From positions 1-64,000 of the IMG/VR virus record IMGVR_UViG_3300046810_000041: a stretch of 64,000 bases of DNA. One strand, 5' to 3'. The DNA is from a virus (Duplodnaviria; Heunggongvirae; Uroviricota; Caudoviricetes). Positions 34,294-56,571 of the stretch are shown here, piece by piece. The translations under genes were made by a program, and so were the position numbers. The notes below the pieces were generated by a model. The model saw only the letters and a program-made list of their open reading frames with translations. It ran no database searches and was not told the origin of the DNA. How positions within the stretch are numbered: the stretch's first letter is position 1; every line of letters begins with the position of its first letter.

Positions 34294-35622
34294 ATGCATA
34301 CCATTTTACATCCAGGTCAATCCGAGATTTATTCTGATCTCTTTATTGAAATGAATTGTAGGTATGCTGTGGCGGTGTGTAGCCGTGGATGGGGTAAATC
34401 CTATTTCGCGGCTGCATGTGCAACTACGGCTATCTTCGAGCTACTACAACTAGCTACTTACGTGCCGAACAAGATTGTATACATCATTGCACCAACGTAT
34501 GCTCAGGTGACTGACATCTATTACCCTCTTTTGGCCTATGAAATGGGTCTTGAGAATTACTGTATTCGCAGTAGTAAAGATGCAGGACGCTTCTGGTTCC
34601 CTAAAGGCGTAGAACTAAGACTTGTCTCTTACGAGGCAGTTGAGCGTTTACGTGGTACGGGTGCATACTTTGTTGTTATGGACGAGGTCCGAGATTGGAC
34701 CAAAGGCTCAGGCTTTAAAGAAGCTTGGGAATCTATCATTCAGCCTTGCATTAACACGCGTTGGTCTCGGAAACGAGCTAAACAGTTATTTGCCAAGTCT
34801 CCTGGTAGAGCCCTCTGTATTTCGACCCCTAAGGGTTACGACTACCTCTATGAAATGTACCACTTCGAAGAGTCAGACTCTGATTGGAAGTCTTACCATT
34901 TCGACTATCGATCTTCTCCATACTTGGATGAGGCCGAAATCGAGAAGGTAATGCATACGATCGATCCTCTGAAGTTCGCAAGAGAGTACAAGGCTTCATT
35001 TGAGGATTCTGGCAATAATGTCTTCTACTGTTTTAATAGGAAAGTCCATGTTCAGAAAGATGTTCCCGATCTCGTTGAGGGTGAAGATGTCCATATTGGC
35101 ATTGACTTCAACGTTGGCCTCCAGTGTTCCTCGGTTTTCGTCATTCGAGGAAATCAAGTACACTTCATTGATGAGCTCAAAGGGCACCCCGATACCGAGC
35201 AGCTCGCGATTGCAATCAAAGCACGCTACAAGGGACACAAAATCTTCGCATACCCAGATCCATCGGGTAGGTCACGGAAGACGTCGGCCCCGGTAGGTGT
35301 GACTGACTTCTCTATCTTGCGCTCTTATGGAATCATCTGTCTAGCTCACAAGAAAGCACCACCGATCGTTGATTCTGTGGCTGCTGTGAACAAGATGCTT
35401 AAGACTGCTGCGGGTGGAGTAAGTATTTATATTCATCCTCGTTGTGTTGGTGTGATTCAATCCCTTGAGCGTACTGCTTGGGTGGATAATAACGCCGATA
35501 CCGCAACGATCGATAAGAAAGAAGGCAATGAGCACTTCTCTGATGGTATCAGGTATGCAATTGAATTCCTGTTCCCGATCAAGGCTCACAAGAAAACTGT
35601 GGAAAGAGGCTTTGGCTTCTAA
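34294..35622 (+). CDS. Terminase large subunit
   Basis: Walker A CSRGWGKSYFAA and Walker B VVMDEVRDW, a downstream nuclease-type acidic block, and a size of 442 aa. Confidence 0.8.
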   Translation: MHTILHPGQSEIYSDLFIEMNCRYAVAVCSRGWGKSYFAAACATTAIFELLQLATYVPNKIVYIIAPTYAQVTDIYYPLLAYEMGLENYCIRSSKDAGRFWFPKGVELRLVSYEAVERLRGTGAYFVVMDEVRDWTKGSGFKEAWESIIQPCINTRWSRKRAKQLFAKSPGRALCISTPKGYDYLYEMYHFEESDSDWKSYHFDYRSSPYLDEAEIEKVMHTIDPLKFAREYKASFEDSGNNVFYCFNRKVHVQKDVPDLVEGEDVHIGIDFNVGLQCSSVFVIRGNQVHFIDELKGHPDTEQLAIAIKARYKGHKIFAYPDPSGRSRKTSAPVGVTDFSILRSYGIICLAHKKAPPIVDSVAAVNKMLKTAAGGVSIYIHPRCVGVIQSLERTAWVDNNADTATIDKKEGNEHFSDGIRYAIEFLFPIKAHKKTVERGFGF

Positions 35623-35647: not shown

Positions 35648-35953
35648 ATGACCGACCAAGTTCAAGCTCCTGTGCTGAATAAACCTGTTGTGGCAAATGC
35701 TGCAGTCAAACCTGCTGAACCTATTGTTCAAGCAAATGCAGAAGTTAAAGAGCCTCCGAAGGAAGTCCCTAAGGAAGCTGCTCAGAAGTATCGTGTGACG
35801 CCTGGTACTCTGCTGCCTGCTGATCTGATTCCCGCCAATTGGGTCATCGAGACTACCTCGGAAGAGAATGTCATCTATGCCCGTAATGGTGTGACCAACA
35901 AAGAATTCGTGGGTCCGAAGAAAGACCTGGGTCGCTACCTCCGGGGTGAATAA
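35648..35953 (+). CDS. Hypothetical protein (101 aa)
   Basis: ORF between TerL and the putative portal. Confidence 0.45.
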   Translation: MTDQVQAPVLNKPVVANAAVKPAEPIVQANAEVKEPPKEVPKEAAQKYRVTPGTLLPADLIPANWVIETTSEENVIYARNGVTNKEFVGPKKDLGRYLRGE

Positions 35954-37596
35954 TGATCGTTACCGTTCCTAAAGCGACAGACGGTGCGGAAAGTAAAAAG
36001 AGTGTAGCTGATCCTACAACCTCTTACCTTACTATGCTCCCTCTGTGGGGCAAAAGCAGGGCTGTATGCAATGGTGAACGGGCTGTAAAAGAGTATGATG
36101 ATATTCTTGATTTAGTCGGATTCACTAACCTGCTGATTCCGTTCTCGCCCTCGATGTCCCCTGAACAGTACCAATGGTACAAATCAGAAGCAGAACTTCC
36201 TGGTATTGTCTCTCAGTATGCTAAGGTAATTGTGGGGGGATTGCTCCGTAAGAAGCCTTCCCTCGAACTACCTGAAGATGCTCCTGAAGATGCAATGGAC
36301 TGGATCATGAACCAATTCGCACAAGATGGTTCTCCTTTGGTTAACTTCCTAGATCAAGCTCTCTGGGAAGAAATGCAGACTTCTCGCGCTTGGGTTTACA
36401 TTGACTACCCTGCTGTAGAAGATGCAAAAGCCAATGCGATGACAAAGGAAGACTTCCTGGAATTGAAGCCTTATCCGGTAATCTGGAATGCTGAGTCCAT
36501 TGTTAACTACCGTGTTGGTGTTAGCTCTGAGACTGGTAATCAAGAACTCAAAATGGTTATTGTGCGTAACTATGAAGAGGACTATAAGGAAGGTGAATAT
36601 CACCCTACTCTAGTCGATACTGTCTGGGTTCATGAACTCAAAGACAATAAGTATCAGATTACCAAGTACCAGAATAAATCTGGGAAGGCTGGTATTCCTG
36701 TAATCAATGGTGCTATCCAGCAGAATTACACTGAGTCTGCTTCTGGCTTCGAACAAGATGGTGAAATCATCTATCCGAAGATTCAGGGCGAGCCTATGAC
36801 TGTAATCCCTGCATGGCCTCTGAATGGTTCGATTGGAATGGTTGATCCTATTCTGAACGCACTGATCGATCGCGAGCTTAGCCTGTACAACAAGCTTTCT
36901 CGTCGTAATCACCTTCTGTATGGCGCATCTACGTATACTCCTTGGATTGCCTCGGATATGCCTGATGAAGACTTCGAGAAGGTAGTAGGTCGTGGACTTG
37001 GTTCCTGGATTCACATCCCTAGTGGTGATACAATTGGCGTCCTTGAGACTCCGACTGCAGCACTACAAGATATGGATCGTGCTATCTCTGCCACTCTTGA
37101 AGAAATGGCGAAGATGGGCATTCGTATGCTGTCTCCTGAAGTGGACCAATCTGGTATTGCTTTGGAGATTCGCAATGCAGCTCAGACTGCTCAACTTGGT
37201 ACGTTAAATACTAAGGTCAGCAATCAGATGTCTAGCATCATCGCTTTCATGCTCAACTGGCGGTATGGTACGGATTACAAACCAGCTGATGTCAAATTCA
37301 AGCTTTCGGATGACTTCAATCCTGCCCCTCTGGGTGCTGATTGGCTGCGTCTGATTACTGAATGGTACCAGGCAGGTCTGATTCCACGTACTGTGTGGCT
37401 GTCGATCATGAAACAGAACGATATCGTACCTCCGGAATACGACGACAAGGAAGGCCAGAAAGAAATTAATGGTGACCCTCTGGTTGTTACTCCAAGGGAA
37501 GATATGCAGTTCGCAGCTCAATTGCAGAAAGAAGTTACGGCTCAAAAGACCGGACAACCAACTGCAAAACCAGCTGTTCCACCAGCGAAGAAGTAA
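35953..37596 (+). CDS. Putative portal protein
   Basis: 547 aa, placed between the large terminase and the MuF-domain minor head protein, which is the canonical portal position in SPP1/lambda-like modules. Assignment by synteny and size only. Confidence 0.5.
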   Translation: MIVTVPKATDGAESKKSVADPTTSYLTMLPLWGKSRAVCNGERAVKEYDDILDLVGFTNLLIPFSPSMSPEQYQWYKSEAELPGIVSQYAKVIVGGLLRKKPSLELPEDAPEDAMDWIMNQFAQDGSPLVNFLDQALWEEMQTSRAWVYIDYPAVEDAKANAMTKEDFLELKPYPVIWNAESIVNYRVGVSSETGNQELKMVIVRNYEEDYKEGEYHPTLVDTVWVHELKDNKYQITKYQNKSGKAGIPVINGAIQQNYTESASGFEQDGEIIYPKIQGEPMTVIPAWPLNGSIGMVDPILNALIDRELSLYNKLSRRNHLLYGASTYTPWIASDMPDEDFEKVVGRGLGSWIHIPSGDTIGVLETPTAALQDMDRAISATLEEMAKMGIRMLSPEVDQSGIALEIRNAAQTAQLGTLNTKVSNQMSSIIAFMLNWRYGTDYKPADVKFKLSDDFNPAPLGADWLRLITEWYQAGLIPRTVWLSIMKQNDIVPPEYDDKEGQKEINGDPLVVTPREDMQFAAQLQKEVTAQKTGQPTAKPAVPPAKK

Positions 37597-37699: not shown

Positions 37700-40600
37700 A
37701 TGGCTGAGATTAATGCTAACACTGCCATCTATGACAAGTCCGTAGATCGATCAGCAATGATTCGATTCTATGAGGAACGTGTCGGCGGTAAAATCAAAGA
37801 GGTAATGAAAGGGCATGAGCTTGATGTGATGAAGCTTATTGCTAGCACTCCCAAGAATGATCCAAAGCTCCGTGAAGAGCTGGATAAACTCTTGATTAAG
37901 AATTATGGCAACATGCATGATATCTCGAAGCGTTCCTTGATGGATCTCATCTTCGATCAGACATCTTACATGGTGCAGAGCCTGACTAAAGCTATTGGTG
38001 ACATCTGGTCTGTCAATAAGCCTCAGTACAGGATTGCAGAAGAGATTGCTCTCAATCGTCCTCTGTATAACGATGCTACCCTACTCCAAGGATGGCAAGG
38101 TGTATCGATCGCTGAAAGAAAACGCCTCGAAGCAGTAATCCGTAAAGGTATTGCTCAAGGTCAATCAGAAGCTGAGATTGCTTTGGAAGTCCGTAAGGGT
38201 AATGTGTTCAACATTTCCAGAACTCAATCGCTTGGTCTTGTGCGTACTGCCATGACTAGTGTTGTGGTTCAAACAGATCATGAAGTCTACAAAGCAAATG
38301 AAAAGGCCTTACAAGGTTGGCAGTATATTGCTGTGCTCGATAGTCGTACTACTCCTATTTGTGCTCATCGTGATGGTACAATCTACGATATTAGCGATAC
38401 TGAACATCTACCACCTTCGCACTGGAACTGCCGATCGACTACTGTCCCTGTTGTCAAGCACTGGTCTGACTTACTTAAGCTTGATGGTGTGGCACAGATT
38501 CGTAGGAAGAACCTGGAGAGCCTGACAGATAAGCAGAAAGCGTACTATGATGGTTTGACTCCTTCGAAAGAGTCTTATCAAGATTGGCTTTCTCGTCAGC
38601 CTACACTTGTTCAGTTGAAGCATCTTGGTGATTACGCCAAAGTAGAAGCCTTCCAACAAGGTAAACTGACTGTAGATAAATTTACAAACGATGATGGTAA
38701 ATCCATCGGTATTAAAGAACTGAGACAGTTGACCAATGAGACCTTCACGGCTCCTGGTGATACTACTCGATTCGGTAATGCCAAAGAAAAGCTGGATGCT
38801 ATTCGCTTAGGTGTGAATCGTCCAGAAGACCTGATCAACAACCCTGATCTGCAGGCTGCACTCAAGGAATACTACTTGCTTCAAGCAGGTGATCTTGATG
38901 GTACTCTGTCGCTCACTAGTTATCGTGGTACGCTTGTTGGTAACAAGAAAGCTACTAAGACTCGTGTTCTTAACTCTCCTCCAAGGGAAGAGAATTTGAA
39001 GTACAATCCTGTGACTGGTCGTTATGATGATTCTCGTATGTATCAGCCTTCTGCTGAGGCACTTGAGAACTCTCTGCGTCTGGTTAATGAAGCTGCCTCT
39101 TTGAAAGACGAGGATAAAGTCTTCATTAATAACTTTATTGCAGGTATGGAGAACTTTGTAGGCACTAACGAAAGAGCTGTGATTACAGAAAATCTGCGTA
39201 TTGTGTTTACTCGATTCCGCGATAACAAAGAGCCTTGGGCTAATTTCAAAGCAGTCCTGAACTCTCAGATGAAGTTTGACGTGATGAACGTTTCTGACTA
39301 TATCGAGACTCAGCTGCGTAAAGACGGTAATCTCCTGACTCGTTTGAAGCAAGACAACTACATTGACCCTGTCCTTGGTGTTGTTCAGCTTGACGATCTT
39401 GAGAAGACCTTCATTGACAACATTAAGGAAAAGAATGCTTGGGAAGATAAGACCGCCCCTAAGATCGCGAAAGAGCTTCGTGGACTTCTTGATCTGGACA
39501 TTCCTCTGCGAATTAGGACACGCCTTAGTAATGATGATCTCGAAGCTTTTTATCTTCGTTTTGCTAACCGCTTGTCTGTTGCTGATACTCCTGACCGTGA
39601 CCAACTGGCAGTCTCTTTGGGACGGGACCTTTACAATTCCGCTAACTGGCGTGGTGACAGACGTGCATGGTTCGACTTAGGTTCTAAGCTGCTGAATAGC
39701 CCTCGGGTGAAAAGCTACTGGAAGCAAGAGACAACGATGACTACTAAGCGTCGTATGAAGAGTAGACTTTCGGGTCAATACTTCGGTCCTTACTATGACT
39801 CGTTCACTGTCAATATTCGTATTGTCGATCCAAGGATTCAGCGCTATGCACAACTTACCCGAAAAGTCGATGTTGGACTCCGATTGGGAGTCTTTAATGA
39901 GCGTAATAAGCTCTACATCCGACCCGGCTTTAAGACTTACTGGACTAAAGGTATTCTTGGCTACGAGGACACAAGAATTCCCATTACCTCCACGAATTCT
40001 TTCTCAGATTTCCCAGAAGAACTGGTTGACAACAATCTGTCCGACGCTCTTAACTGGGCATCAACCACTAAGTACAAAGTAGACCCTGAGTTCCACGACT
40101 TCATCGAGAAATTGCTGATGTTCGAGGACGATAAGGGTAAAGCTCAGTACTATCATGGTTTGAATCAGTATCGTAGTTACATCGCTGAACGTGGTGATGC
40201 CTATGAACGATTTAAAGCTATGAAGTGGCTTCGGGATAAAGAAATTGGATTTGCTAATCATGCATTCGTAGACCATCGTGCTCGTATTTACGACCGTGGT
40301 ATGATTAGCCCTCAGTCTGGTGAAACATTCCGTCCATTCCTTAATACGAGTGAGCCTGTGAATTTCTCCCCAGAAGAGTTTGACAACTTGCAGGATCAGA
40401 TAGGTGCTTTCTTAGGAGGTCTCTCAGACCACTTTGAAGGAAGGTACAATTCCCTGTCTATCCTTGGTCGTCAGAAGATCGCTGAGATGTGGAGAGATGA
40501 ACTGGTCAAGATCGGTAACCATATCCTGAGAAATAAACCTGGAGATATTCGTGCTGTCCTGGAGTCTGACTTCCTGGCACATATCGAAGGTGAAGAGCAA

Positions 40601-42619
40601 GGTAAAGCTATGCGCTTCGCTCTGGAAATGGCAAAGATCGATAAGTATCTGAAAGAGAAGGCTAGTGTAGTCTTCCAAGAACCTGACCTGAGCTTTATTC
40701 GTGATGGTGATGAGTACATTGACATTAACAAAGTACACCAGTTGGCTCACTTGAAGCCGATTGAGAAAGTTAATGTGGATGATGTCAACATCTTCGTGGA
40801 TGAAACTCTTTCAGAGCACTCCGCAAGGAAGCTCCCTAAAGGTGATGAGAAACGAATTAAGAAAGCAGACTTGGATGCACCTGTGGTTGTGGAGTTAGAT
40901 GAAGGCCAATACGGTCAACAAGACTTCAAATACCACTGGCTCGATGGTTACCACCGCTTAGTGAAAGCAAAGCGTGATGGCATCAAAGAGATTCAAGTAC
41001 AAGTGCTCTCTGCAAAAGATGTGAAGAAGGCCCGAGTGCAGCACTACGATCAGTTGACTGAAGGTAATCCCAAAGAGATTCTGTGGGGTAAGCCGATCAA
41101 CCCGTATTCGCCGCTTAACTTGAGGCACCTCAACAACTACAAAATCAGTGTCGCTCTGGAGCAGGATGCTTCCTCCTCTGGTGCACAGATTATTGCTCTG
41201 ACTACGAAGAACAAACAGCTCGCCAATCTGTCTAATGTTATTCCAACTAACCAGAAGCAACGTCTGTATGACGAGATTGCAGCAGCTACCTACCAAGATC
41301 CTCGTTTCCAAGAACTGAATAAGCGATTGGGACTCTCCGAGAAGGATCTACGTAAGGCTGCTAAAGCTCAGAACATGGTTACTTTCTATGGTGCTGGTGA
41401 ACGTACTGGTATTCTGAATGTGGAAGGTAAGCTCGCGAAAGCCCTTAGCAAACAACCTGGAACAATGGTGGTTAAGGCTTCTGACCGAGACAAAGTACTT
41501 AACGAAATCTCGGCTCGTATGGCTCGATATGAAAAATTCGATCCAGACACATATGAAGAACTTAAGGCTCTTCGTCAAGACGTGCGTGACATCTTCAACA
41601 AAGGCCAACAGCCTAGTGATGACATCATGTACCAATTGTATTTCTTAGAGCCTAAAACGAGAGACCTGGTGGATAAGATGACGCGTCAGTACGACAATGT
41701 TGTTACTCCGCAGGACTTCTCAACAATTGCAAAGATTATGAGCGAGAATCTTTCAATCCAAGTCCCAATCCTCAAAGACTTCACCAGATTCTTCGGAAGA
41801 CTGGCGGAAGACTTCGTAACAAACGCTAAACCTGGGGATAGCAAGAAAGATCTTGCAGAAGTACTCAAAGAGAAAGCCTTTGGTCAGCGCAAAGGACAGC
41901 CTCCAGAACTCCTTAACCGGATTCCGGGATGGCATCCAGGAAGTCCTTTGTCTGAAATGCTCTATGGCGTGCGTGAGAAGAAACTACCTAAGAAATGGAC
42001 TAACATTCCTTGGGTTAACTTTGATGGTAAGACAATTGAACAGAACTTCACTCAAGTGTTCGAGGAGCGTTTGACTTACAAGGACAAGAATGGTAAGTGG
42101 GTGACTAATATCCTGCAAGTACCACAGAAAACTGATCCCACATTCTGGGATGAGCTTGTGAATAAGAGCGACCTCTTCAATGATATTGTTGATGCTCAGA
42201 AAGCAAGAACTGCATTTGCGGTTAACGGTAATCACTCAAATGATGCTGTGATCGTTAAGCGTTTCCATCTGTGGGGCAAAGAGAAGGATATTCCGACTTC
42301 TACTATCCATGATGCGTTCTTTACAAATGCTGCTAAGCTGCTTGAGGCTAGAAGCGCACTCAGAGAAATCTATGGTGACATCGTTACGACCAATCCTGTT
42401 CAAAATACTCTCGATGAGATGTATAAACGAGGTTTACCAAAAGAGCTCTACAAGAAATACTTAAATGAAGCTATCGACATTGGCCTGATACCTGTGGTTG
42501 GAAGGTCGCGTGTTGGCGGTAAGCTCATTACCGAGGATGACATCCTCACGAAGGAAGATATTCTAGCGCCTATCCCTAAAGGGTTCAAAGAGAACCTTGG
42601 ATGGTATGGCATTGGATGA
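37700..42619 (+). CDS. Giant minor-capsid fusion protein: N-terminal Mu-F/SPP1-gp7-like head domain, central region, C-terminal T7/N4-like single-subunit RNA polymerase domain with a ParB-like insertion (candidate virion RNAP)
   Basis: MuF motif ...TTPICAHRDGTIYDISDTEHLPPSHWNCRSTTVP (about 38340-38445). RNAP motifs: DHRARIYDRG...SPQSG (T/DxxGR region, 40271), motif A QDASSSGAQ (41165), motif B KAQNMVTFYGAG (41363-41392), a HSND block, and motif C IHDAFF (42308). ParB-like WLDGYHRLVKA at 40937-40969. Confidence 0.8.
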   Translation: MAEINANTAIYDKSVDRSAMIRFYEERVGGKIKEVMKGHELDVMKLIASTPKNDPKLREELDKLLIKNYGNMHDISKRSLMDLIFDQTSYMVQSLTKAIGDIWSVNKPQYRIAEEIALNRPLYNDATLLQGWQGVSIAERKRLEAVIRKGIAQGQSEAEIALEVRKGNVFNISRTQSLGLVRTAMTSVVVQTDHEVYKANEKALQGWQYIAVLDSRTTPICAHRDGTIYDISDTEHLPPSHWNCRSTTVPVVKHWSDLLKLDGVAQIRRKNLESLTDKQKAYYDGLTPSKESYQDWLSRQPTLVQLKHLGDYAKVEAFQQGKLTVDKFTNDDGKSIGIKELRQLTNETFTAPGDTTRFGNAKEKLDAIRLGVNRPEDLINNPDLQAALKEYYLLQAGDLDGTLSLTSYRGTLVGNKKATKTRVLNSPPREENLKYNPVTGRYDDSRMYQPSAEALENSLRLVNEAASLKDEDKVFINNFIAGMENFVGTNERAVITENLRIVFTRFRDNKEPWANFKAVLNSQMKFDVMNVSDYIETQLRKDGNLLTRLKQDNYIDPVLGVVQLDDLEKTFIDNIKEKNAWEDKTAPKIAKELRGLLDLDIPLRIRTRLSNDDLEAFYLRFANRLSVADTPDRDQLAVSLGRDLYNSANWRGDRRAWFDLGSKLLNSPRVKSYWKQETTMTTKRRMKSRLSGQYFGPYYDSFTVNIRIVDPRIQRYAQLTRKVDVGLRLGVFNERNKLYIRPGFKTYWTKGILGYEDTRIPITSTNSFSDFPEELVDNNLSDALNWASTTKYKVDPEFHDFIEKLLMFEDDKGKAQYYHGLNQYRSYIAERGDAYERFKAMKWLRDKEIGFANHAFVDHRARIYDRGMISPQSGETFRPFLNTSEPVNFSPEEFDNLQDQIGAFLGGLSDHFEGRYNSLSILGRQKIAEMWRDELVKIGNHILRNKPGDIRAVLESDFLAHIEGEEQGKAMRFALEMAKIDKYLKEKASVVFQEPDLSFIRDGDEYIDINKVHQLAHLKPIEKVNVDDVNIFVDETLSEHSARKLPKGDEKRIKKADLDAPVVVELDEGQYGQQDFKYHWLDGYHRLVKAKRDGIKEIQVQVLSAKDVKKARVQHYDQLTEGNPKEILWGKPINPYSPLNLRHLNNYKISVALEQDASSSGAQIIALTTKNKQLANLSNVIPTNQKQRLYDEIAAATYQDPRFQELNKRLGLSEKDLRKAAKAQNMVTFYGAGERTGILNVEGKLAKALSKQPGTMVVKASDRDKVLNEISARMARYEKFDPDTYEELKALRQDVRDIFNKGQQPSDDIMYQLYFLEPKTRDLVDKMTRQYDNVVTPQDFSTIAKIMSENLSIQVPILKDFTRFFGRLAEDFVTNAKPGDSKKDLAEVLKEKAFGQRKGQPPELLNRIPGWHPGSPLSEMLYGVREKKLPKKWTNIPWVNFDGKTIEQNFTQVFEERLTYKDKNGKWVTNILQVPQKTDPTFWDELVNKSDLFNDIVDAQKARTAFAVNGNHSNDAVIVKRFHLWGKEKDIPTSTIHDAFFTNAAKLLEARSALREIYGDIVTTNPVQNTLDEMYKRGLPKELYKKYLNEAIDIGLIPVVGRSRVGGKLITEDDILTKEDILAPIPKGFKENLGWYGIG

Positions 42620-43386: not shown

Positions 43387-44568
43387 ATGGATATGACCAC
43401 TGGTCTGGCAGGCGCTTCTAATTACGTCCTGCAATCGGCTATCACTGCTTATGCAGATGAAGCTTACACTAATGCTCGCAAACTGTCGGGCACTGGCATC
43501 GCTGGTACTGATGCTCGTATCGATCCTTCGACTGAGACCTTCATTGGTCAAATGCGCTGGTTCAAGCCTCTGAATCCTGTGATCAACGTCGCATCGCTGA
43601 CTGATCCGACCAAAGGTACGCCGACTACCTACGCTTCGGAATTCGCGACCTACGTGAAATCGACTCGTACCCACGGTGCAGAGAAGGTCAATCTGCAGCA
43701 CATCGTTACTCAAGACGATGGTCTGGCTAAGGTTGGTCGTGACTTCGCTGAGACTCGTGCTCAAGATGAACACAATGCAATGCTGGCCATCATGAAAGGT
43801 GTCGCAATCTCGGAAGCCCTGATGGGTGCTGCCGCTGGTTCGGGCACTGGTGGTCTGGGTGGTCAAACCTTCGACAACGATCCGACTGACAAGCGTTACG
43901 GCTTCTATGTCGATCTGGGTACAAGCTCGCTGGTCAATGCTGCTACGGCTTCGAGCCAAGGCGCACAGCGTGCAGAACAGTTCCTGAATGCTCTGGGAAT
44001 GGGCTGGAAGGACTACGAGCCTGAATACGCTTACCTGGTGACTTCGCCGCAGATGGTCGCTATGCTGCGTTCGGCTAACCTGGTCGATCAAACCAAAGTG
44101 TCGGAAGCGAACATCATGTTCGAAACCATCTTTGGTGGTAAGTTCCGTCTGATCCAGACTCGCGCTACTCAGTCGCTGTCGGCTGGTCAAATGTCGAAGA
44201 TCAATTCGGGCAATGGTGTCGATATCGTCGGTACCAAGACTTCGTTCATCGTTCTGCCTGGCGCTATCGCTATGGCTGGCCTGAACATCGAAGTCCCGAC
44301 CGAGATTACTCGCGATGGTTCGACCTACAACGGTGGTGGTTCGACCAACATCTGGCATCGTTGGGGCTATGTGGCTCACCCTTCGGGCTACAACTGGAAA
44401 GGCGCTGACGACAAGTTCGCTTCGGACGCTGACTACCAGAAGGCTCTGACTGGTGGTACTGCACTGAACCTGATCGACAGCGTTGTGGATAACACCACTG
44501 TCGGTACCTGGGAACGTAAGACGAACTCGGCTCTGGGTCTGTCGATCCTGCCTGTGTTCCACTCGTAA
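43387..44568 (+). CDS. Putative major capsid protein
   Basis: 393 aa, positioned after the scaffold and before the head-tail genes. Assignment by synteny and size. Confidence 0.55.
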   Translation: MDMTTGLAGASNYVLQSAITAYADEAYTNARKLSGTGIAGTDARIDPSTETFIGQMRWFKPLNPVINVASLTDPTKGTPTTYASEFATYVKSTRTHGAEKVNLQHIVTQDDGLAKVGRDFAETRAQDEHNAMLAIMKGVAISEALMGAAAGSGTGGLGGQTFDNDPTDKRYGFYVDLGTSSLVNAATASSQGAQRAEQFLNALGMGWKDYEPEYAYLVTSPQMVAMLRSANLVDQTKVSEANIMFETIFGGKFRLIQTRATQSLSAGQMSKINSGNGVDIVGTKTSFIVLPGAIAMAGLNIEVPTEITRDGSTYNGGGSTNIWHRWGYVAHPSGYNWKGADDKFASDADYQKALTGGTALNLIDSVVDNTTVGTWERKTNSALGLSILPVFHS

Positions 44569-47820: not shown

Positions 47821-50800
47821 ATGTCAGGCGTAGCAATTGACGTACAAACAAGGTCTGACTCAGCGGAACGCGACCTTAAGAAAATAAACGAGTCGTTGAC
47901 AGGGATCCAAAAGACAACCGAAGGTGTGACTAAATCTTTGGCTAATATGGCCAAATCGATTGCACTATCTGCTGCATCGGTTGGTGGATTCGCTGCTATC
48001 GTACAAATCTCAGATCAGTTTACCAACCTCGGCAATAAGATTGCTCTGGTCACTGGTCGTACTAATGACATGGTCTATGCACAGACTAAGCTGCTGGACA
48101 TCACGGAAAGAACTCGTGGTTCCATCGATGATGCAGCTATGGCATTCGGTACATTTGGTAAAGCGCTGAAAGGCTCTGGTGCTTCTGTTGACTCTCTGCT
48201 CAAGGCTACTGAAGCTGTGCAGAAGGCTGTGGCAATCTCTGGCTCGTCCGCTGAGTCTGCTCAGGCCGCAATCATCCAGCTTGGCCAGGGTCTTAGCTCT
48301 GGTGTGCTGCGTGGTGAAGAGTTCAACTCGATCATGGAACAGACGCCCCGTATCGCCGTAGCTCTGGCAGACAGCCTGAATGTGTCTCTGGGTAACCTGC
48401 GTGCTATGGCCGCCGAAGGTAAGCTGACTTCGGATGTGGTGTTCAAAGGTCTGTTAAGCCAGACTAATCAGCTGAACAAAGAATTTGCTCTGCTTGCTCC
48501 TACTATGAGCCAAGGTGTACGTGCTAGTAAACAAGCCGTATCTGAGTTCGTAAATGAACTCTTAATTGGTCTTGGCGCAAGCGAGGCTGTAGGTGGTGTA
48601 ACAATGAAGATGGCTTCGGCTATTCGTGATCGTGCTAAGACAATCGCTGTCGATGCTGCAATCTTCATGGCTAACCTGCGAATGATGCTGGCCAACATTT
48701 CTGTGATTGGTAAACCGATCATCGACCTGTTCAAAGCAATCGGTACTCAAATCAAAGCTGCATTCCCTTCTTTCTGGATTTCTCGTACTCTGACGGGTGA
48801 TCTGGAATACGCTCTCCGTAAGATCGACCTTATGTTCGGTGGTACTCTGGAGATTATGGAGAAAGATGCAGAACACTTCTGGGACGACTTCCTGACAATT
48901 GACAGCCCTGTAGAGAAGGCTGTTAAGAAACTTAAACGTCTGACTCCTACTGAATGGTTCCACGAAGGTGTCCATAGTGGTGAGCTGAAAGCATTCTTCA
49001 GTACAGAAATGATGTATCTGTATGCTGATGCTTTGCGTGACCTTGCTACTGCCGTTGCTGACAATAGTAATAGCATGTACGCTTCGTACCGTGACTTCGG
49101 TCGTAAGATCACTGGTGTCTTCAAAGATGTTCAGATGTATTTCGGTCTCATTCCAGATACGCTGATTCGTATGCGAGTTGGTGCAGTAGATGCACTGATG
49201 TGGACTGTTGCACAATTGATCCGTGGCTTTACCGAGCTGGGAATCAAGGTGTATGACATCCGTCGTTACGTAAGTGAGACTCTGGGTGACACATATGTGG
49301 GTGTTGTGAATGCATTGAAAGATGTGTTTATGAACGCACCACGAATGCTCTTCAATGGTATCAAATCTGTGTTCGAGTATCTGGTCCGTGTAGCTGTTAA
49401 TACCGCTCAGATTATTGAGGACGCATGGAACAACAAGATTTATGGACCTATGGCTCTTGTCATTATGGGCATCCAAAAGATTGCTCGATTGATGAATGGT
49501 CTGGGTGAACAGAATCGTGCTGCTGAATTCTTCAAGACAGTTATCGCAATGTCGGTACGTATGGCTCAGGAAGCTGGTCGTGCTATTCAAGAATTTAGTG
49601 TAAAGATCATTCAGTACTTCTTCGAAATCTGGGATGCTGTTATTGGCCACTCCTGGTGGACTGATACTGTGGAGAGTGTGATCAACACCTCTGCTAGCCT
49701 GCTGTCTGATGTTGCAGGCCCTTTGACTAAGTTCTCCAAGTTTGTTGTAGGTCTCTTCAAGGATATCTGGAACAAGACGACTAATGGAGAAGGCTTCGCT
49801 GCTGTGGCTGATGCTATCGTTGCTGGTGTGGATAACATGGCAACCAACATTCGTCCAGGTTTTGCCAAGTTTAAGAAGACTGTTGTCGATGGTTATAAGT
49901 CGCTGGCTCAAGTCAGTACCTTCACGAATCCGCTGAAGAGCGTAGCTGGTTGGTATACTGGTAAGGTTGTAAAGCGCGAAATCTCGTATGACGTGTCTTG
50001 GGAACCGAGTGCAATGCAGAAGATGCTGCACAACTTTGATGTGATGACTTTCCAAGTGATGTTCAAGACTGCAATGATGGTCGACAAAGCTGGTAAGGCA
50101 ATCCATAAGTTCTGTGCTTATGTCATCGCTGAGTTCCGTGAAGTGTGGGATGCTGTTATCGGCCACTCTTGGTGGACTGATACGATCGATGGTGTGGTGG
50201 ATCAATCGAATAGCTTGATCAAGCGTACTAAAGATGCATTCAGTACTTTCAAGAACATGGTTGCTGACACATTCGATGCTCTGGCAGGCGCTGCAGGTAT
50301 GAAAACTACCTTCGCTAGTAGTCTCCAAGGACTCGGTCAACTGTTCGGTATCGTGGCTAACGACTTCAGTGATAAACTGGTAGCGGGTCTGGAAGTATTC
50401 AAAGACGAAATGCCACAAATCCTTAAGGCTGTCGGTATTGCTGCTGCTGGTTTTGCTGCACTGCTGTTACCTCTGGGTCCGTTTAAGAAAGCTGTTGTCT
50501 TTGCAATTGTTGATTCGCTCATCACTGCTTCGACACTGGTTTCTGAGAAGTTCTCGGAAGGTGTGTTCGGTGCTAGCTTCACCTTAGGTGCTGGTCGCGC
50601 AATCGGTCATGTAATCGCTTCTGTGGTTGCAAACTTCATTGCTGATCTTCCACAAATGCTGAATGCAATCGTAGGTCTTGTAAGCGGTTTTATTGAAGGT
50701 ATTACTAGCGGTCTTGCTTCGAAGATTCCGGTTATCGGTACTCTGATTGCTAAAGTCTTTGATGTAATTAACTTTACAGGATTGACTGGACCTTTAGGTA

Positions 50801-53800
50801 TTTTGGGTATGTACCTGTACGGTAATAGTATCCTGTCGTTCTTCGCTAAGCTCGGTATCTTTACAGACCGGATTGGTGCTCTGCAGTTGAGCTTGGAGAA
50901 TCTGGGTAAAATGCGTACTGACCTGTCTAGCCAGCAAGGTATTCTGGGTAAACTCATCTACGGTACCGTTGGTGCTAAATCGACTGTTGCTGGTATTGGC
51001 CTGATTTTGTCTTCGCTGGGTGCTTTCGATAGTATCTTCGCTGGTTCGTGGATCATGAAGATGGCTGCTAATGGTGGTCTGCTGACTGTGATGCTGGCTG
51101 GTGATAAAGGCATCGACAAGATTGCTGATACATTCTACAGCAAAGTCATGGGTCCATTGATGCTCAAGATCCAAGAAATGACTAAGAAGGTTAGTGTTGG
51201 TGGTAGCACGTTGAATGACATGCTGTTTGGGCCTGCTGGTTCTAACTTGGCAATCGTTGAAAGGGGTCGTGAGACTCTCGGTAAATGGATCGGCAAGATG
51301 GAAGACTACATTGTCGAGCAAGGCGCTAAATGGGGCAAGAAGGGTATGGACTTCATGACCATCCTTGTGATGGGTAGTGAACAAGATACCACTGTCAACC
51401 AGTTCAAATCTATGATGGATAAGATCGTAGATGTTGCCAAGAACGCTCTGAAGAAGATTGGCGAATACGCTATGAAGAGTGACTTCCTCAAGAAGGCATT
51501 CACAGGTGAAGACGGTAATGGCGGTCTGGTAGGCAAGTTCAAAGAGTTCATGGCTCGTCGTCGTACCCAAGCACCGCAGACTCAAGGTAGCCTCTTCGGC
51601 GGTTCTATCGATGAGCAAATTCGTCACGCTCAACGTCCAGCTAACCAGTCGCACGACCTGGTAAATCAGGGTGACCTGCTGGGTGGCGTTCCGATGATCA
51701 CTCGTCAGGCTGAAGCTGGTATGCAACGTGTCACTGTTGCTGCTAACCAGGCCAACCAAGCTGCTGCACGTATCGGTGGACCTACGGGTCTTCTGGGTCG
51801 TGTTGTGTTTGGTAAGTGGGGTCTGATTGGTCTGACTGCGGCTGTGGCTCTGGCATTCTCGTCGTTTGCAAAAGCTGCTGAAAATCAGCCTTACACGAAG
51901 AGCAACAAAGACTTCGGTATCTTTGACGGTATCAAAACTGTTCTGCAGTCGTTCATGGAGAATGATCCAATCAAAACCTATGTCACTGGTGCTCTCGTAA
52001 TTCTGGGTACTTTGACTGCATTCTTCCCTGGCACTATGGTTCCCGCAATTGGTGGAGCTATGAGTCTGGTTGGTAGCATTATCGCAAGCGCTTTCAGCCC
52101 TGGTGTACTTGCTGCATTTGGTACTGCATTTAGCGCGCTGACTGCCTTTATTGGTGCTAATGCAATGCGTTTGAAACTGGCTCTTGGCGGTATGATTGCT
52201 GGTGGTGCTGCTGGTGCTGCTTTAGGTGCTAACAATAATGATATGATGCTGCTTATGGGTATGGCTACAATGGCTTCTCAAGCTATTATGGCGATTCCTG
52301 CAGTAACAAGAGCTGCTCTTCTGGCATCTTTGGCATCGTTTGGTAAATGGGTTGCTGGTGTTATCGCTGGATTTATGGCGATTGAAGCTGCTGCTATCGA
52401 AGCATGGGCTGTCGCTCTGTGGCCGTTCGTTCTCGGTGCCGCTGCTATTGCTGGTACATTCGCTACTATTCTGCAACTGTTTGGTGAAGGCGAAGGATTC
52501 CTGGAAAAGTGGGACAACTTCATGGACAGTATTTACCAGAAGTTTGGTTGGCTGGAGAAAGGTGTTAGCCGAGTCCGTAAGAATATCGAGAACAAGATTG
52601 ATCCAAAAGATCGTAAGTTCGAAGGTATGGACCTGTCTTACAGCTTGGATGGTATTGATCTGAAAGCGATCGATGTCGGTATTACCAAGAGCCTGGACAA
52701 AGTCACTGACAAGATGGCTGAAGCTGTTAAGCAAGCTAAAGAACAGAAAGACCTGCAAGGCGAAGTTGAAGATAGTACAATGAAGACTATCCGCGAACTG
52801 AAGAAGCAACTGGATAACGTGATTGCGAAAGCACGAGCTGCATCCCGTAAGGATCTGGGTGATCAACTGAAAGATGCTAACGCATCCAATCAGCATGACC
52901 CTGATCGTGAGCGTGGTTTCTTTGGTCGTATGAAAGATAGCTTCCTGAACTACAGTCTGCATAAGAAGTATGACAGCGATGAAGCTCGTTTGAAGCGTAT
53001 TCTGGAACGTGATCCTGGTAATACTCAAGCTATTAAAGAGCTGGATGATATCAAAGGTAAGCGTCAAACTGAGTACAAAGCAAACTACAACTTTGCTGAT
53101 GACTTCACGAAAGATCTTCAAGCTACTTGGAACAAGATTGACCCGACATTCTCTATTGTGGCTGACATCAATCAGTCGTCTACTGAGAAGACGGACAATA
53201 CTCGTCTCAAGGACAATTTCGAAGCTGCTGTGGCTAACCTGAACAAGGCTAACCGCAGGGTCTTAGAAGTAGAAGATAGTGGCTACTCTAACTCCAGCGG
53301 TAGAAAGAGCATTGCTTACCGTACTGCTGATATGAATCGTGATAGCGCGAGAGCTGCTGTTAAGATGCTGTCGGAACAGTATTTGGCTGCACAGCAGGCT
53401 GAGAAGGCGATTCAAGAATACCAAGCTGGTCTCGGTACTCTGGATACTCAACTCAAAGAACTGAATATCACGTATGAAGCTGGTGGTCTTTCGGCGGCTG
53501 GTGATACTGTGTATGCAACTGCTGAAGCTCAAAGAGCCCGTGCAGAAGCTATGAAAGCTGGTAAGACTGAGGAAGAAGTCAACAAGGCTTCCCAGGATGC
53601 GTACGAAGAAGCTTACCAGAATAGTCTCAACCGATACAAAGGTACTGTAGCTATCTTGGCTCAACTTCAGAAATCGTTGAAGCGTACTAAGAATGGTTAC
53701 CAAGACCTTCAGAAGCAGCTTGAACTGCGTGATGGTAAAGCGGAGAATGCGGTCGATGTTCGTCAAGGGCAAGATCGTAATCAGCTGAATCCTGACCAAC

Positions 53801-56571
53801 TGCTGGAAGTAAGTAATGCTAAGGCCAACACTGGCTTTGGTATTGACTTCAAAGCTCTTCATGATATCCCTTCGGCATTTAAGCTGGAAATGAATGAGCT
53901 GATTCAGCAACTGGAAAAGCAGAAGTTGCGTCTGACTTATCGTGACCTGATTGTCACTACGGATATGTCTGCTGATGCTAAGAGAGACGCCGATAAGAGA
54001 ATGGCTGAAGCGCTTGCCGCTATTGGTCAAACTCAAGATGCTATCCGGAAGAAATTCCAAGATGCATACGACATGGCTCCTGGTGTTATGGGTCGAGTTC
54101 AAGCAATGAAAGGGTATGGTGTTGATGAGACGCCTGAACCAGTGTTTACGGACCTGAGCCCTGAAAAGCAACGAGCTTATACCGACAAACAGATGCATCT
54201 CAAAGAACTGAAAGACATTCTGTCGAGTATCCAAGATGGTACCGCGAGCTTTAAGTTCGATGACAAGAAAGTTGAAGATAAGTTCTTCGGTGATCTCCGT
54301 AAAGGAATCCGCGATACGACTGCAGAGCTGGCAGAAATGCTTCCTACTGCAACTAATGCTCTGGGTATCCTTGAGCGTATGGGTCGTATTGGTTTCAATG
54401 TAAACGCAAACCAGTTGTACCGTCTTCCGAAGAAACTTCGTGATGATGCTGCAGCTAAGGGCGATGAGTACAAAGAAATCAACTTCAAGCTGACACGTGA
54501 AGGTAGTCAGAATCTGTCGGATGACGAGAAGAAAGCACTGATTGCGAAACAAGATGCTCTGCGTAAGTGGGGTGAAGAGCAATCGGCTAAGCTTCCTAAA
54601 TCGTTCTCGGACAAGATGGCTGCTGTTTCGGCTGCTGGTGTTAATCTTGATATGGGCACAGCTTTCCGCTTGCCGCCTGGTATCATTGATCAATACATGA
54701 AGATCGCTGATGAGATTGGTGTCATCACACGACAGGCTGCTCGTCTGGATGAATCGTCTACTCCTGCTCAAGTTTCGGCTTTGGGTAAGAGCTACGAGGA
54801 ACTGGTCAAGAAGTTGCGTTCGCTGAGTGAAGCAAACATGAACTACGGAGAGAAACTCAACTTCGTCAATAGCAACCTCCAGGACGCTAAAGTGACGGGT
54901 GATGAGTGGGCTCGTATGACCAACAAGCAACGTGATGCTATGATTGAGCTTGCAAAAGCACATCGTGATTACGAAGAGCAGTTGGAACGTTCGAAGAACC
55001 CTAACTCGAAGAAAGCTCAAGAATTGCGTGCTCGTATTCGTGAACTCGAAGAACAGTCGAAGGACAATCCAGGACGTACTCTAGGTGGTGCTGCTTCTGA
55101 TTCGATCAATCGTGCTGGTGTATCCACAAGTGAGTCTGTTGTAGGTCGTATGAATGTTGATGATCAAGTTAATCTGAAGAAGATGGCTGATCAAATCAAC
55201 TTGCAGAAGGCAAAGAATCTTCAGGAAATGAACCCACAAGTTCGTCGTGCTGGAGAAGATATTGTCGCTGATCTGACTGAAAAGCTGACTAACGCTGTGG
55301 CTGCATCTACTGTCACTTCAGGTATCACTGCAATCTCTGGTGCTGGTGTTAATATCACCCAAGCAGGTTACAATCTGGTGGATGAAGCTAATCGTGCTAT
55401 GCTGCAAGGTATGGCTGGTGAGATTCGTCGTCAACAAGGGATTGTGGCTACTACTCTGGATCCTGTTGCTCGTATGGCAGCTCAGAAGAAGCTCAATGAA
55501 TTGACAATTTCTTTGCAGAATCAAGTTGCAAAGCTGACAATGGATCGTGCTAATTCGGGTGCTTACCAAGCAGGTCAAACTCTGGCGCAGAATATGCATC
55601 AGAATATGACTCAAGGTATTTCTGATGTCCTGAAAGGGAAATCAACAATCAAGGATGCATTACTCGGTGTTGTGGACACGTTCACAAATGGAATCATCGA
55701 TAGCTTCGTTGGTGGTATGACTTCTGCTATCAGTGGCAAAGGTGGTATCCTGGATACTATGATGGGTGGTGTTGGCGAAGGTGTATTCGGTTGGGCTAAA
55801 GGTTTGTTCGGTGGAAACACTCAGAACGAGAAAGACTATGCAACTCAAGCAATGCAAGAAGCTGCTTCGGCAATGAAAGCGTTGGTAGCTGCAATCTCTG
55901 GTGTAATGCCAGGAGGTCTGAATCCTTTCAGCACACCTGATACTTCGGCATCTACCGCACCAATCAAGGCAGGTCTGGACAGCATGGGTGAGAAGATCAG
56001 AGACGGTAACACTTCTCTGGCTACGATCCTGGGCGGTTCTTTGACTAGCCTTGGAGGAATGATTACAGCAGGTCTGCAAGGGCTGATGACTGTGATGGTT
56101 CCAGGTAGCGGCGGCGGTGGTGGCTGGCTCGGTATCGCAATGGCTGGCCTGAGTGCTATGTCTGGCTCTGGCATGTTTGGCGCGGCTGCAGGTGCTGCTG
56201 GTAGCGCAAGTACGATGCTGACTGCTGCTGACTTGTCTCTCCCTGCTTCGATGATTCGTGAGAATGCTTCGTTCATGGACAGCCTGTCTCAGCTGCCAGA
56301 CTTCAAACCTGCAGGGCAATTTGCTATCGGTGGAGTGATCCCTGGTACACGTGGTATGCCTGTTCCGATCATCGGTCACGGTGGTGAGGTCATTCTGAAT
56401 GCAGCACAACAGAATGCTCTTCTGCATGGTGGCGGTGCTAAATCGGAAGCAACCTTCAATCTGCATATTACTGGTGATGTGTCTACGCAAACTCGTCAAG
56501 AGATTGCTCGGATGATTCCTCAGATTGCAGCAGGTGTTAACCAAACCAACCTTGAGAAAGGAAGAAGATGA
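47821..56571 (+). CDS. Tail tape measure protein (2916 aa)
   Basis: Classic N-terminal tape-measure block [58 protein letters not shown]. Long coiled-coil regions and Gly/Ala-rich membrane-like segments. Position after G/GT. Confidence 0.8.
   Translation: [2916 protein letters not shown]

Follow-up and report, generated by a model that had tools for sequence, protein, structure and literature searches.

Introduction

Virion RNA polymerases (RNAPs) carry out the very first step of infection in phages that are independent of the host enzyme, and to our knowledge their packaging, their inactivity and their switching-on are poorly understood. The polyvalent proteins of phages and conjugative elements include fusions of MuF to effectors and N4-like virion RNAPs with ART, lysozyme or PBECR domains, and in the concept set out by Iyer, Burroughs, Anand, de Souza and Aravind in 2017 the ParB/Srx domains are hubs of such proteins, predicted to be nucleoside triphosphate (NTP)-regulated DNases that are injected with the DNA (PMC5512222). 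In the Ralstonia jumbo phage RP12, the product of ORF42 was described by Matsui et al. in 2017 as the ortholog of phiKZ gp180, the N-terminal part of the virion RNAP beta' subunit, and the ortholog of phage RP31 was found in virions by liquid chromatography with tandem mass spectrometry (PMC5468394). Here we analyze a stretch of 64,000 nucleotides (nt) from a virus of the Caudoviricetes (IMG/VR record IMGVR_UViG_3300046810_000041, positions 1 to 64,000; the window in what follows), in which a gene that fuses a MuF domain to a T7-like RNAP holds, inside its polymerase half, a nested domain of the ParB/Srx superfamily.

The N-terminal domain of ParB, sulfiredoxin, SerK/SbnI and Osa have a common alpha/beta core fold. 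A 2025 survey of the ParB-CTPase fold used the TIGR, Pfam (PF02195) and KOFAM models of ParB; the term 'RNA polymerase' is absent from it, and the only related fusion that it gives is one to a bacterial Sigma70 domain (PMC12704722). We found no description in the open-access literature of MuF fusions to T7-like RNAPs or of RNAPs that harbor a nested ParB-like domain.

Results

A ParB/Srx domain nested in a T7-like polymerase

The domain lies in an open reading frame (ORF) of 1639 amino acids (aa) at 37700..42619, on the forward strand like every feature of the window described below. Its translation combines a MuF/SPP1-gp7 head-morphogenesis domain with a T7-like single-subunit RNAP, and its product is a putative virion RNAP. 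A 156-aa insertion at aa 985-1140 (40652..41119) holds the ParB/Srx-like domain; it is missing from orthologs and matches the PHROGs family phrog_17560. In EBPR siphovirus 1 (55% identity) and in the Naomviridae phage DSS3_PM1 (28%) a few residues replace these 156. The 120 best metagenomic orthologs of the window protein, on which all ortholog counts in this work are based, give the same picture: 106 have 2-16 residues at the site (mode 8) and so no insert, six have the DGxHR domain (the window-type RNAP and five others), five have an unrelated domain of about 152 aa, and inserts of 131 aa (GNAT-like), 105 aa and 33 aa are found once each. The clean absence of aa 985-1140 from orthologs therefore makes the insert a discrete module of 156 aa. 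When the window family is aligned to T7 RNAP by hhalign, the insert falls between H524 and G525, within the loop that leads into the motif-A strand; the probability of this alignment is low (18%), but it is colinear through T/DxxGR and motif A.

A preliminary description of this locus had drawn attention to the peptide KYHWLDGYHRLVKAKRDGIKEIQVQVL, which we locate at aa 1077-1103 (nt 40928-41008), with its DGYHR at nt 40943-40957, inside the range of 40930-40975 noted there. It had also estimated an insertion of about 190 aa from the spacing between the T/DxxGR block at nt 40271 and motif A at nt 41165. Both motifs are where it placed them, and the spacing from D858 to D1156 is 298 aa compared to 116 aa in T7 RNAP (D421-D537). 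A discrete insertion is indeed present, but its size is 156 aa (about 148 net) and not about 190, the remaining 35 or so extra residues relative to T7 being common to the whole polymerase family.

The folded core of the insert spans aa 999-1110 (40694..41029) and is made of a family-specific N-terminal beta-hairpin and helix, followed by the ParB/Srx alpha/beta core. Conservation was assessed in an alignment of 25 sequences of the inserted-domain family (A1, with positions in insert numbering). DGYHR (aa 1082-1086) is the counterpart of the GERR, GCHR or DGxHR phosphate-binding motif; its D, G, H and R are invariant in all 25 sequences and align with IDGVHR of SbnI, so that the G-x-x-R motif is in place. 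Upstream of the core strand, R1052 within EKRIKKAD (40853..40855) is also invariant. The full set of A1 invariants is R68, D98, G99, H101, R102 and A106, which correspond to R1052, D1082, G1083, H1085, R1086 and A1090, while D1057 and P1061 (columns D73 and P77) are kept in at least 90% of the family members. Against solved structures the A1 profile matches SbnI, a serine kinase of the ParB/Srx fold, with E=2.3e-7 over the core strand and the DGxHR helix. A fold search with the AlphaFold2 (AF2) model of the insert (predicted local distance difference test, pLDDT, 83.6; predicted template modeling score 0.78) returned ParB/Srx structures in nearly all of its matches, with the alpha/beta core of the superfamily. 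Residues 992-1110 match positions 7-111 of the 119 in phrog_17560, a family of unknown function, at near full length (E=4e-10 for the whole protein and 2.8e-11 for the fragment). From the SbnI profile match and the fold matches it follows that the insert is a bona fide member of the ParB/Srx superfamily, an independently folding domain of about 110 aa plus linkers. Two proposals of the preliminary description are thereby borne out, that the segment is ParB-like and that it is an independent module inside the polymerase; it is cleanly absent from most orthologs and has the same secondary structure whether it is modeled alone or within the full polymerase.

The search against the Pfam ParBc and ParB_N families that had been suggested as a check gave no match for the window sequence, and the family profile and the fold search were needed to place the domain. 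Even at E<=10 Pfam finds nothing in the window insert, the gathering threshold of ParB_N (PF02195) being 26.3 bits, and two sister inserts give ParB_N matches below that threshold (17.6 bits and E=0.004 for the best, P0006; E=0.2 for the other). A word-indexed search for homologs of the insert by itself gave no matches. With an exhaustive HMMER search no more than 20 relatives came up at E<=1e-3, most of them stand-alone proteins of 117-146 aa, and stand-alone homologs range from 106 to 160 aa overall. The domain occurs only once in the 64-kb window, and neither the initial 50 kb of EBPR siphovirus 1 nor the homolog loci examined hold a further copy.

The lack of a Pfam ParB match could suggest that DGxHR is a chance string in a canonical RNAP subdomain, or that the insert is an intein. 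The 5-mer is weak evidence alone, with 0.007 occurrences expected in the ORF and one further DG.HR that the window contains in a non-coding frame. Both explanations can be excluded when the rest of the evidence is considered: the SbnI profile match, a fold search in which essentially all significant matches are ParB/Srx structures, the clean deletion in orthologs and the existence of stand-alone homologs. As for an intein, the junctions (marked here by a slash) read ...DKYL/KEKAS and ...YSPLN/LRHL. The insert thus begins with Lys, has no N-terminal Cys or Ser and no HN-Cys/Ser/Thr at its C-terminal junction, and its fold is ParB/Srx and not Hint.

We infer that the domain binds an NTP through DGYHR and R1052, probably in an ATP-type mode like that of Srx, SerK and SbnI rather than as a canonical CTP switch. 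A canonical ParB-CTPase was considered and rejected. The fold ends at about aa 1110, there is no helix-turn-helix (HTH), no C-terminal dimerization domain and no other Pfam domain, and the sequence returns directly to the motif-A strand; DGYHRLVKA has His in the place of the first Arg of GERRxRA, and A1 has no box III of the ENLQR type. A two-domain kinase like SbnI or SerK was rejected as well, the profile covering only residues 7-92 of a protein of about 250 (242-256) and the insert having no second domain. The same facts weigh on the broader idea of a Srx/SerK/SbnI-type phosphotransferase or kinase that would serve host takeover or anti-defense as infection begins, with a host protein, a small molecule or a nucleotide as its substrate. 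Of all solved structures, that of the free serine kinase SbnI is nearest in sequence, the best fold matches include SerK and sulfiredoxin, the motif is of the DGxHR/GCHR-like kind (His before Arg) and not GERR, and in phage Xoo-sp14 a stand-alone member lies among nucleotide-metabolism genes. However, only the N-terminal domain of SbnI is matched, the SbnI/SerK C-terminal domain has no counterpart in the insert, and A1 shows no evident conserved acidic catalytic base aligned with the N-terminal region of SbnI. We judge a kinase to be quite unlikely.

Presence and absence of the domain among relatives

In a neighbor-joining tree of the polymerase core, the sequences with ParB-type inserts are scattered among insert-less ones. 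The closest relatives of the window polymerase (P0002-P0004, with 74-79% identity in the polymerase half) have no insert. Over the full length of the gene, the locus L009, which has the insert, is 83-85% identical in nucleotide sequence to L010, which has none; a clean indel, 348 nt in the one and 12 nt in the other, sets them apart. At 45.3% GC the insert is close to its host gene (44.4%), and its composition shows no sign of recent foreign origin. The patchy tree, the clean indel, the insert-less closest relatives and the equal GC content together argue that the domain is an optional cassette in a permissive loop. It is also under purifying selection for its own motif, while for transcription and promoter recognition it appears dispensable in this family. 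Promoter recognition had been offered in the preliminary description as one example of what the domain might do. An essential role of this kind is unlikely, and we rejected it, because 106 of the 120 orthologs have no insert, L009 and L010 differ only by the domain, and unrelated domains share the loop.

The loop before motif A is a hotspot of domain insertion (P0064, P0069, P0104, P0109, P0120, P0100, P0106 and P0054). Besides the ParB-like domain it can hold the domain of about 152 aa, which has no PDB or Pfam match and only a weak one to phrog_5043, a family whose function is unknown; the 131-aa domain, which is GNAT/FR47-like; a 105-aa 'GHSRG' insert (phrog_30942); and the 33-aa insert. 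All end close to a conserved (P)YS.

A patchy distribution on the polymerase tree and a clean indel between close relatives could also be the marks of a selfish mobile insertion, in which a ParB-like nuclease would behave as a homing element, inserted in frame and not spliced, that moves from one polymerase gene to another and is of no benefit to the phage. Mobile elements are attracted to this gene family, as described below, and some domains of the ParB-like kind are reported to act as nucleases (PMC5512222). Such an origin is nonetheless very improbable. At least three unrelated domain types, one of them GNAT-like, occupy the same loop, the GC content matches that of the host gene, there are no intein or Hint features, and the family is conserved, both in virion-associated proteins that stand alone and in fixed fusions, of which there are many.

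In EBPR siphovirus 1 the MuF-RNAP ortholog (L001 6189-7040) is annotated as three genes, gp47, gp48 and gp49. An HNH endonuclease ORF splits it exactly inside motif B, at the junction that corresponds to V1227/T1228, and directly past the HNH stop codon the downstream exon restarts. The interruption has the look of a mobile intron that carries a homing endonuclease. In another relative (L012, encoding P0002) an HNH_3 gene lies immediately 3' of the polymerase gene.

The domain family in other phages

When the window insert and a stand-alone member (P0131) were used in a tblastn search of an annotated phage collection, the matches were almost only in genomes of about 180-310 kb, which is jumbo size. 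RP12 gp042 (L006 4339-6333) matches phrog_2986 at aa 1-538 and then phrog_17560 at aa 557-658, its C-terminal 100 aa, and matches under beta' annotations imply the same C-terminal arrangement in RP31, FLC1-1B and FLC4-3B. This appendage of the RP12-type beta' N-subunit goes unmentioned in the paper describing the phages (PMC5468394). In phage PA5oct the domain is at the C-terminus of EST35_0140, annotated as 'structural protein, ESI-MS/MS'. Stand-alone genes of the family are found near the major head protein gene in Pseudomonas phage EL (gp075), after the prohead protease and about 4 kb from the virion RNAP beta genes in a phiKZ-like metagenomic contig (L003), and before an internal head protein in Psa21. 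Three MuF fusions (P0121, P0123 and L018) have the domain N-terminal to MuF. A small ParB-like protein of the PA5oct-like Pseudomonas phage vB_Pa-PAC2 (59709-60029; H44/H67) is annotated as 'putative RNA polymerase beta prime subunit', which was probably transferred from an RP12-type fusion via the common domain.

A scan of IMG/VR with the family pattern gave 79 loci, none of which is of the MuF-RNAP type, and no further nested copies were found. Among them are a fusion with a GH19 lysozyme and a second ParB_N (L031 4399-6927), a fusion with an SNF2 helicase (L042 5326-8202) and giant proteins of 2500-3750 aa with the domain inside (L037 640-11883, L065 2101-12138 and L080 1-7506). In P0132 the domain is followed by a candidate pair of 2H-phosphoesterase-like H-x-T/S motifs, seen by eye only.

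The attachment of the same family, independently, to a single-subunit and to a multisubunit virion RNAP suggests that this small, phage-specific ParB/Srx domain could be a dedicated partner of virion RNAPs, recruited twice independently, that holds the polymerase silent or anchored as long as it is in the capsid and frees it to act once cytoplasmic NTPs are met. It would then be a switch, clamp or tether gated by NTP, inactive in the capsid, where NTP is absent, and active in the cytoplasm, serving allosteric regulation or coupling to the ejected genome, and its recruitment by the two kinds of polymerase would be convergent. In line with this, the domain is nested in the T7-like virion RNAP of the window and in five orthologs, sits at the C-terminus of the virion RNAP beta' N-subunit in RP12, RP31, FLC1-1B and FLC4-3B, and is encoded close to virion RNAP beta genes in L003. 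The insertion point by hhalign is also at the edge of the T7 palm-insertion module, which we take, from the structure of T7 RNAP with lysozyme, to be part of an allosteric regulatory surface. That ParB-fold domains are known NTP switches (PMC12704722) can be counted on the same side. On the other hand, just 6 of the 120 orthologous polymerases have the domain, near-identical polymerases differ in its presence, and the same loop is taken by unrelated domains. PA5oct depends on the host RNAP (PMC7318152) and yet packages a protein with the domain, in many members the fusion partner is MuF, lysozyme or SNF2 and no RNAP is involved, and phiKZ-type gp180 orthologs in general (phrog_2986, 539 aa) are without it. 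Both the switch and the twofold recruitment as a dedicated partner seem rather unlikely to us.

The MuF-RNAP gene and its surroundings

Pfam matches the 1639-aa protein, above the cut-off in each case, to Phage_Mu_F with E=3e-16 and to RNA_pol with E=8e-12, and PHROGs matches its N-terminus to head-morphogenesis families and its C-terminus to RNA polymerase families. The metagenomic protein P0001 is 100% identical to it. The MuF core (PF04233) at aa 143-248 (38126..38443; 60.6 bits against a cut-off of 29.6) is a capsid- or portal-targeting module. Upstream of the gene are the terminase (34294-35622) and then, directly adjoining, the portal (35953-37596), and downstream is the major head protein (43387-44568). 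The MuF fusion makes it most likely that the whole protein is packaged in the head and ejected with the DNA, and with the gene position taken into account the fusion protein is presumably packaged in the capsid.

For the polymerase half, the best Foldseek matches of an AF2 model of aa 641-1639 (pLDDT 80) are T7 and mitochondrial RNAPs, with E of about 1e-13. The T/DxxGR block DHRARIYDRG (aa 858-867, 40271..40300) aligns with MDWRGRVY of T7 RNAP (D421-Y427). Motif A, DASSSGAQ (aa 1156-1163, 41165..41188), contains the catalytic D1156, aligns with T7 DGSCSGIQ (D537), starts 16 aa past the end of the insert and is invariant in the polymerase alignment (A2). Motif B, R-x3-K-x7-YG, is intact as RKAAKAQNMVTFYG (aa 1218-1231, 41351..41392), with K, Y and G invariant in A2, and so is motif C, HDAFFT (aa 1537-1542, 42308..42325), which aligns with T7 HDSFGT. 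A right-hand fold, the T/DxxGR block, motifs A, B and C and the Pfam score (RNA_pol, PF00940, 45.1 bits against a cut-off of 22) together identify a T7-like single-subunit RNAP. A phmmer search of the polymerase half against PDB sequences gave no matches, and the polymerase family profile matched T7 only marginally there (E of about 0.05-0.09).

A second, free-standing T7-like RNAP of 758 aa is encoded at 430-2706 (phrog_414, E=8e-117), and the phage therefore probably uses first a virion and then a non-virion RNAP, like N4 and phiKZ. The tape measure protein (47821-56571) is very long at 2916 aa, which implies an unusually long tail; its counterpart in EBPR siphovirus 1 has about 2140 aa. Insert-less MuF-RNAP orthologs are also encoded by dU-DNA roseophages of the Naomviridae, DSS3_PM1 (gp60, L002 3010-7401) and DSS3_VP1. 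Their only annotations are 'minor head protein-like' or 'head morphogenesis', and the paper describing the Naomviridae makes no mention of an RNAP.

Discussion

Our preferred reading is that the nested domain is an optional accessory or effector module which travels with the virion RNAP and is not part of the transcription machinery. We regard this as probable, with some room left for doubt. The family recurs as stand-alone proteins and on virion-delivered polyvalent proteins, which is why we read it as an accessory or effector module; the layout of MuF, early enzyme and ParB/Srx domain and the range of fusion partners match the polyvalent concept and favor an accessory module that binds NTP. 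The fold, the insertion boundaries, the conservation of DGxHR and the Arg, the fact that the polymerase family can do without the domain, and its recurrent fusion with virion or ejected proteins are directly supported. With regard to its activity, our first candidate by analogy would be NTP-dependent DNA binding or nicking, as has been proposed for the ParB domains of polyvalent proteins, and we put it forward only tentatively.

Under this reading the ParB/Srx domain would occupy a permissive surface loop of the T7-like RNAP, immediately before the motif-A strand. The MuF-RNAP would be packaged in the head, ejected with the DNA and used to transcribe the early genes, after which the free-standing T7-like RNAP at 430-2706 would take over. 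The nested domain, with NTP bound through DGYHR/R1052, could then act in the first minutes of infection.

Several observations weigh against this reading or parts of it. The stand-alone genes of Xoo-sp14, between dTMP kinase and thymidylate synthase, and of Machina, among tRNA genes, do not look like virion modules. In an hhalign comparison of A1 with the ParB domain of P1 DdrB the probability was 0.3% over 15 aligned columns, although with a single sequence as target the sensitivity is limited. The net charge across the family is near neutral (-10 to +9; -3 with an isoelectric point, pI, of 6.1 for the window copy), and this near-neutral, variable charge therefore gives no support for non-specific DNA binding; net charge and pI do not discriminate DNA binding from other roles. 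Finally, it is the MuF fusion and the gene position from which we infer packaging and ejection of the MuF-RNAP.

The results can be of use beyond this phage. A natural site of domain insertion before motif A of a T7-like polymerase, which can house at least four folded domains unrelated to one another, is useful for the engineering of T7-type polymerases. The family is an unannotated one of the ParB/Srx fold that would escape the current Pfam-based surveys of the ParB-CTPase fold. Its recurrence on ejected proteins, including the MuF fusions, the jumbo-phage virion RNAP subunit and a proteomically confirmed virion protein, makes it a cheap biochemical target of about 120 aa, which could teach us what ParB-like domains do at the earliest stage of phage infection.

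Comparison with known systems

Within the ParB/Srx superfamily the nearest solved members are SbnI, SerK, sulfiredoxin and the N-domains of KorB, ParB, Noc and PadC. The window domain differs from these in falling below the Pfam ParB_N threshold, in having no HTH, no dimerization domain, no box III or C-motifs and no SbnI/SerK C-terminal domain, in the N-terminal beta-hairpin with YQE...YDLN motifs that is particular to its family, and in being nested in another enzyme. The stand-alone and terminal members of phrog_17560 are closer. The window domain is a direct member of that family, with the same invariant residues as EL gp075 and the C-terminus of PA5oct EST35_0140; unlike the window insert, these are stand-alone proteins of about 120 aa or the terminal domain of a small virion protein.

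The beta' N-subunit of the Ralstonia phages RP12 and RP31 (RP12 ORF42) resembles the window protein in that a virion-packaged RNAP again carries a phrog_17560 domain (E=1.4e-17; YQEE...DGNHR) (PMC5468394). It differs in that the polymerase is a multisubunit beta/beta' enzyme with a fold unrelated to that of T7 RNAP, and in that the domain is C-terminal and not internal.

Like the polyvalent proteins, the window protein joins MuF, which targets the head, an RNAP that acts early and a domain of the ParB/Srx type in a single polypeptide, encoded among late genes, and like the polyvalent ParB domains its family occurs with MuF (P0121, P0123, L018), GH19 (L031), SNF2 (L042) and in giant proteins (L037, L065, L080). 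In contrast to the polyvalent proteins, the domain is nested in a loop of the polymerase palm and not arranged in tandem. The family has no similarity to the DdrB-like ParB clade of polyvalent proteins that hhalign can detect with the single P1 DdrB sequence, and the polymerase itself, unlike the 3500-aa virion RNAP of N4-like phages, is a MuF-fused T7-like enzyme in a genome of siphovirus type. A polyvalent virion protein with a ParB/Srx module is thus a known theme, and what is new here is the nesting of such a module in the polymerase palm and its link to a virion RNAP subunit of jumbo phages.

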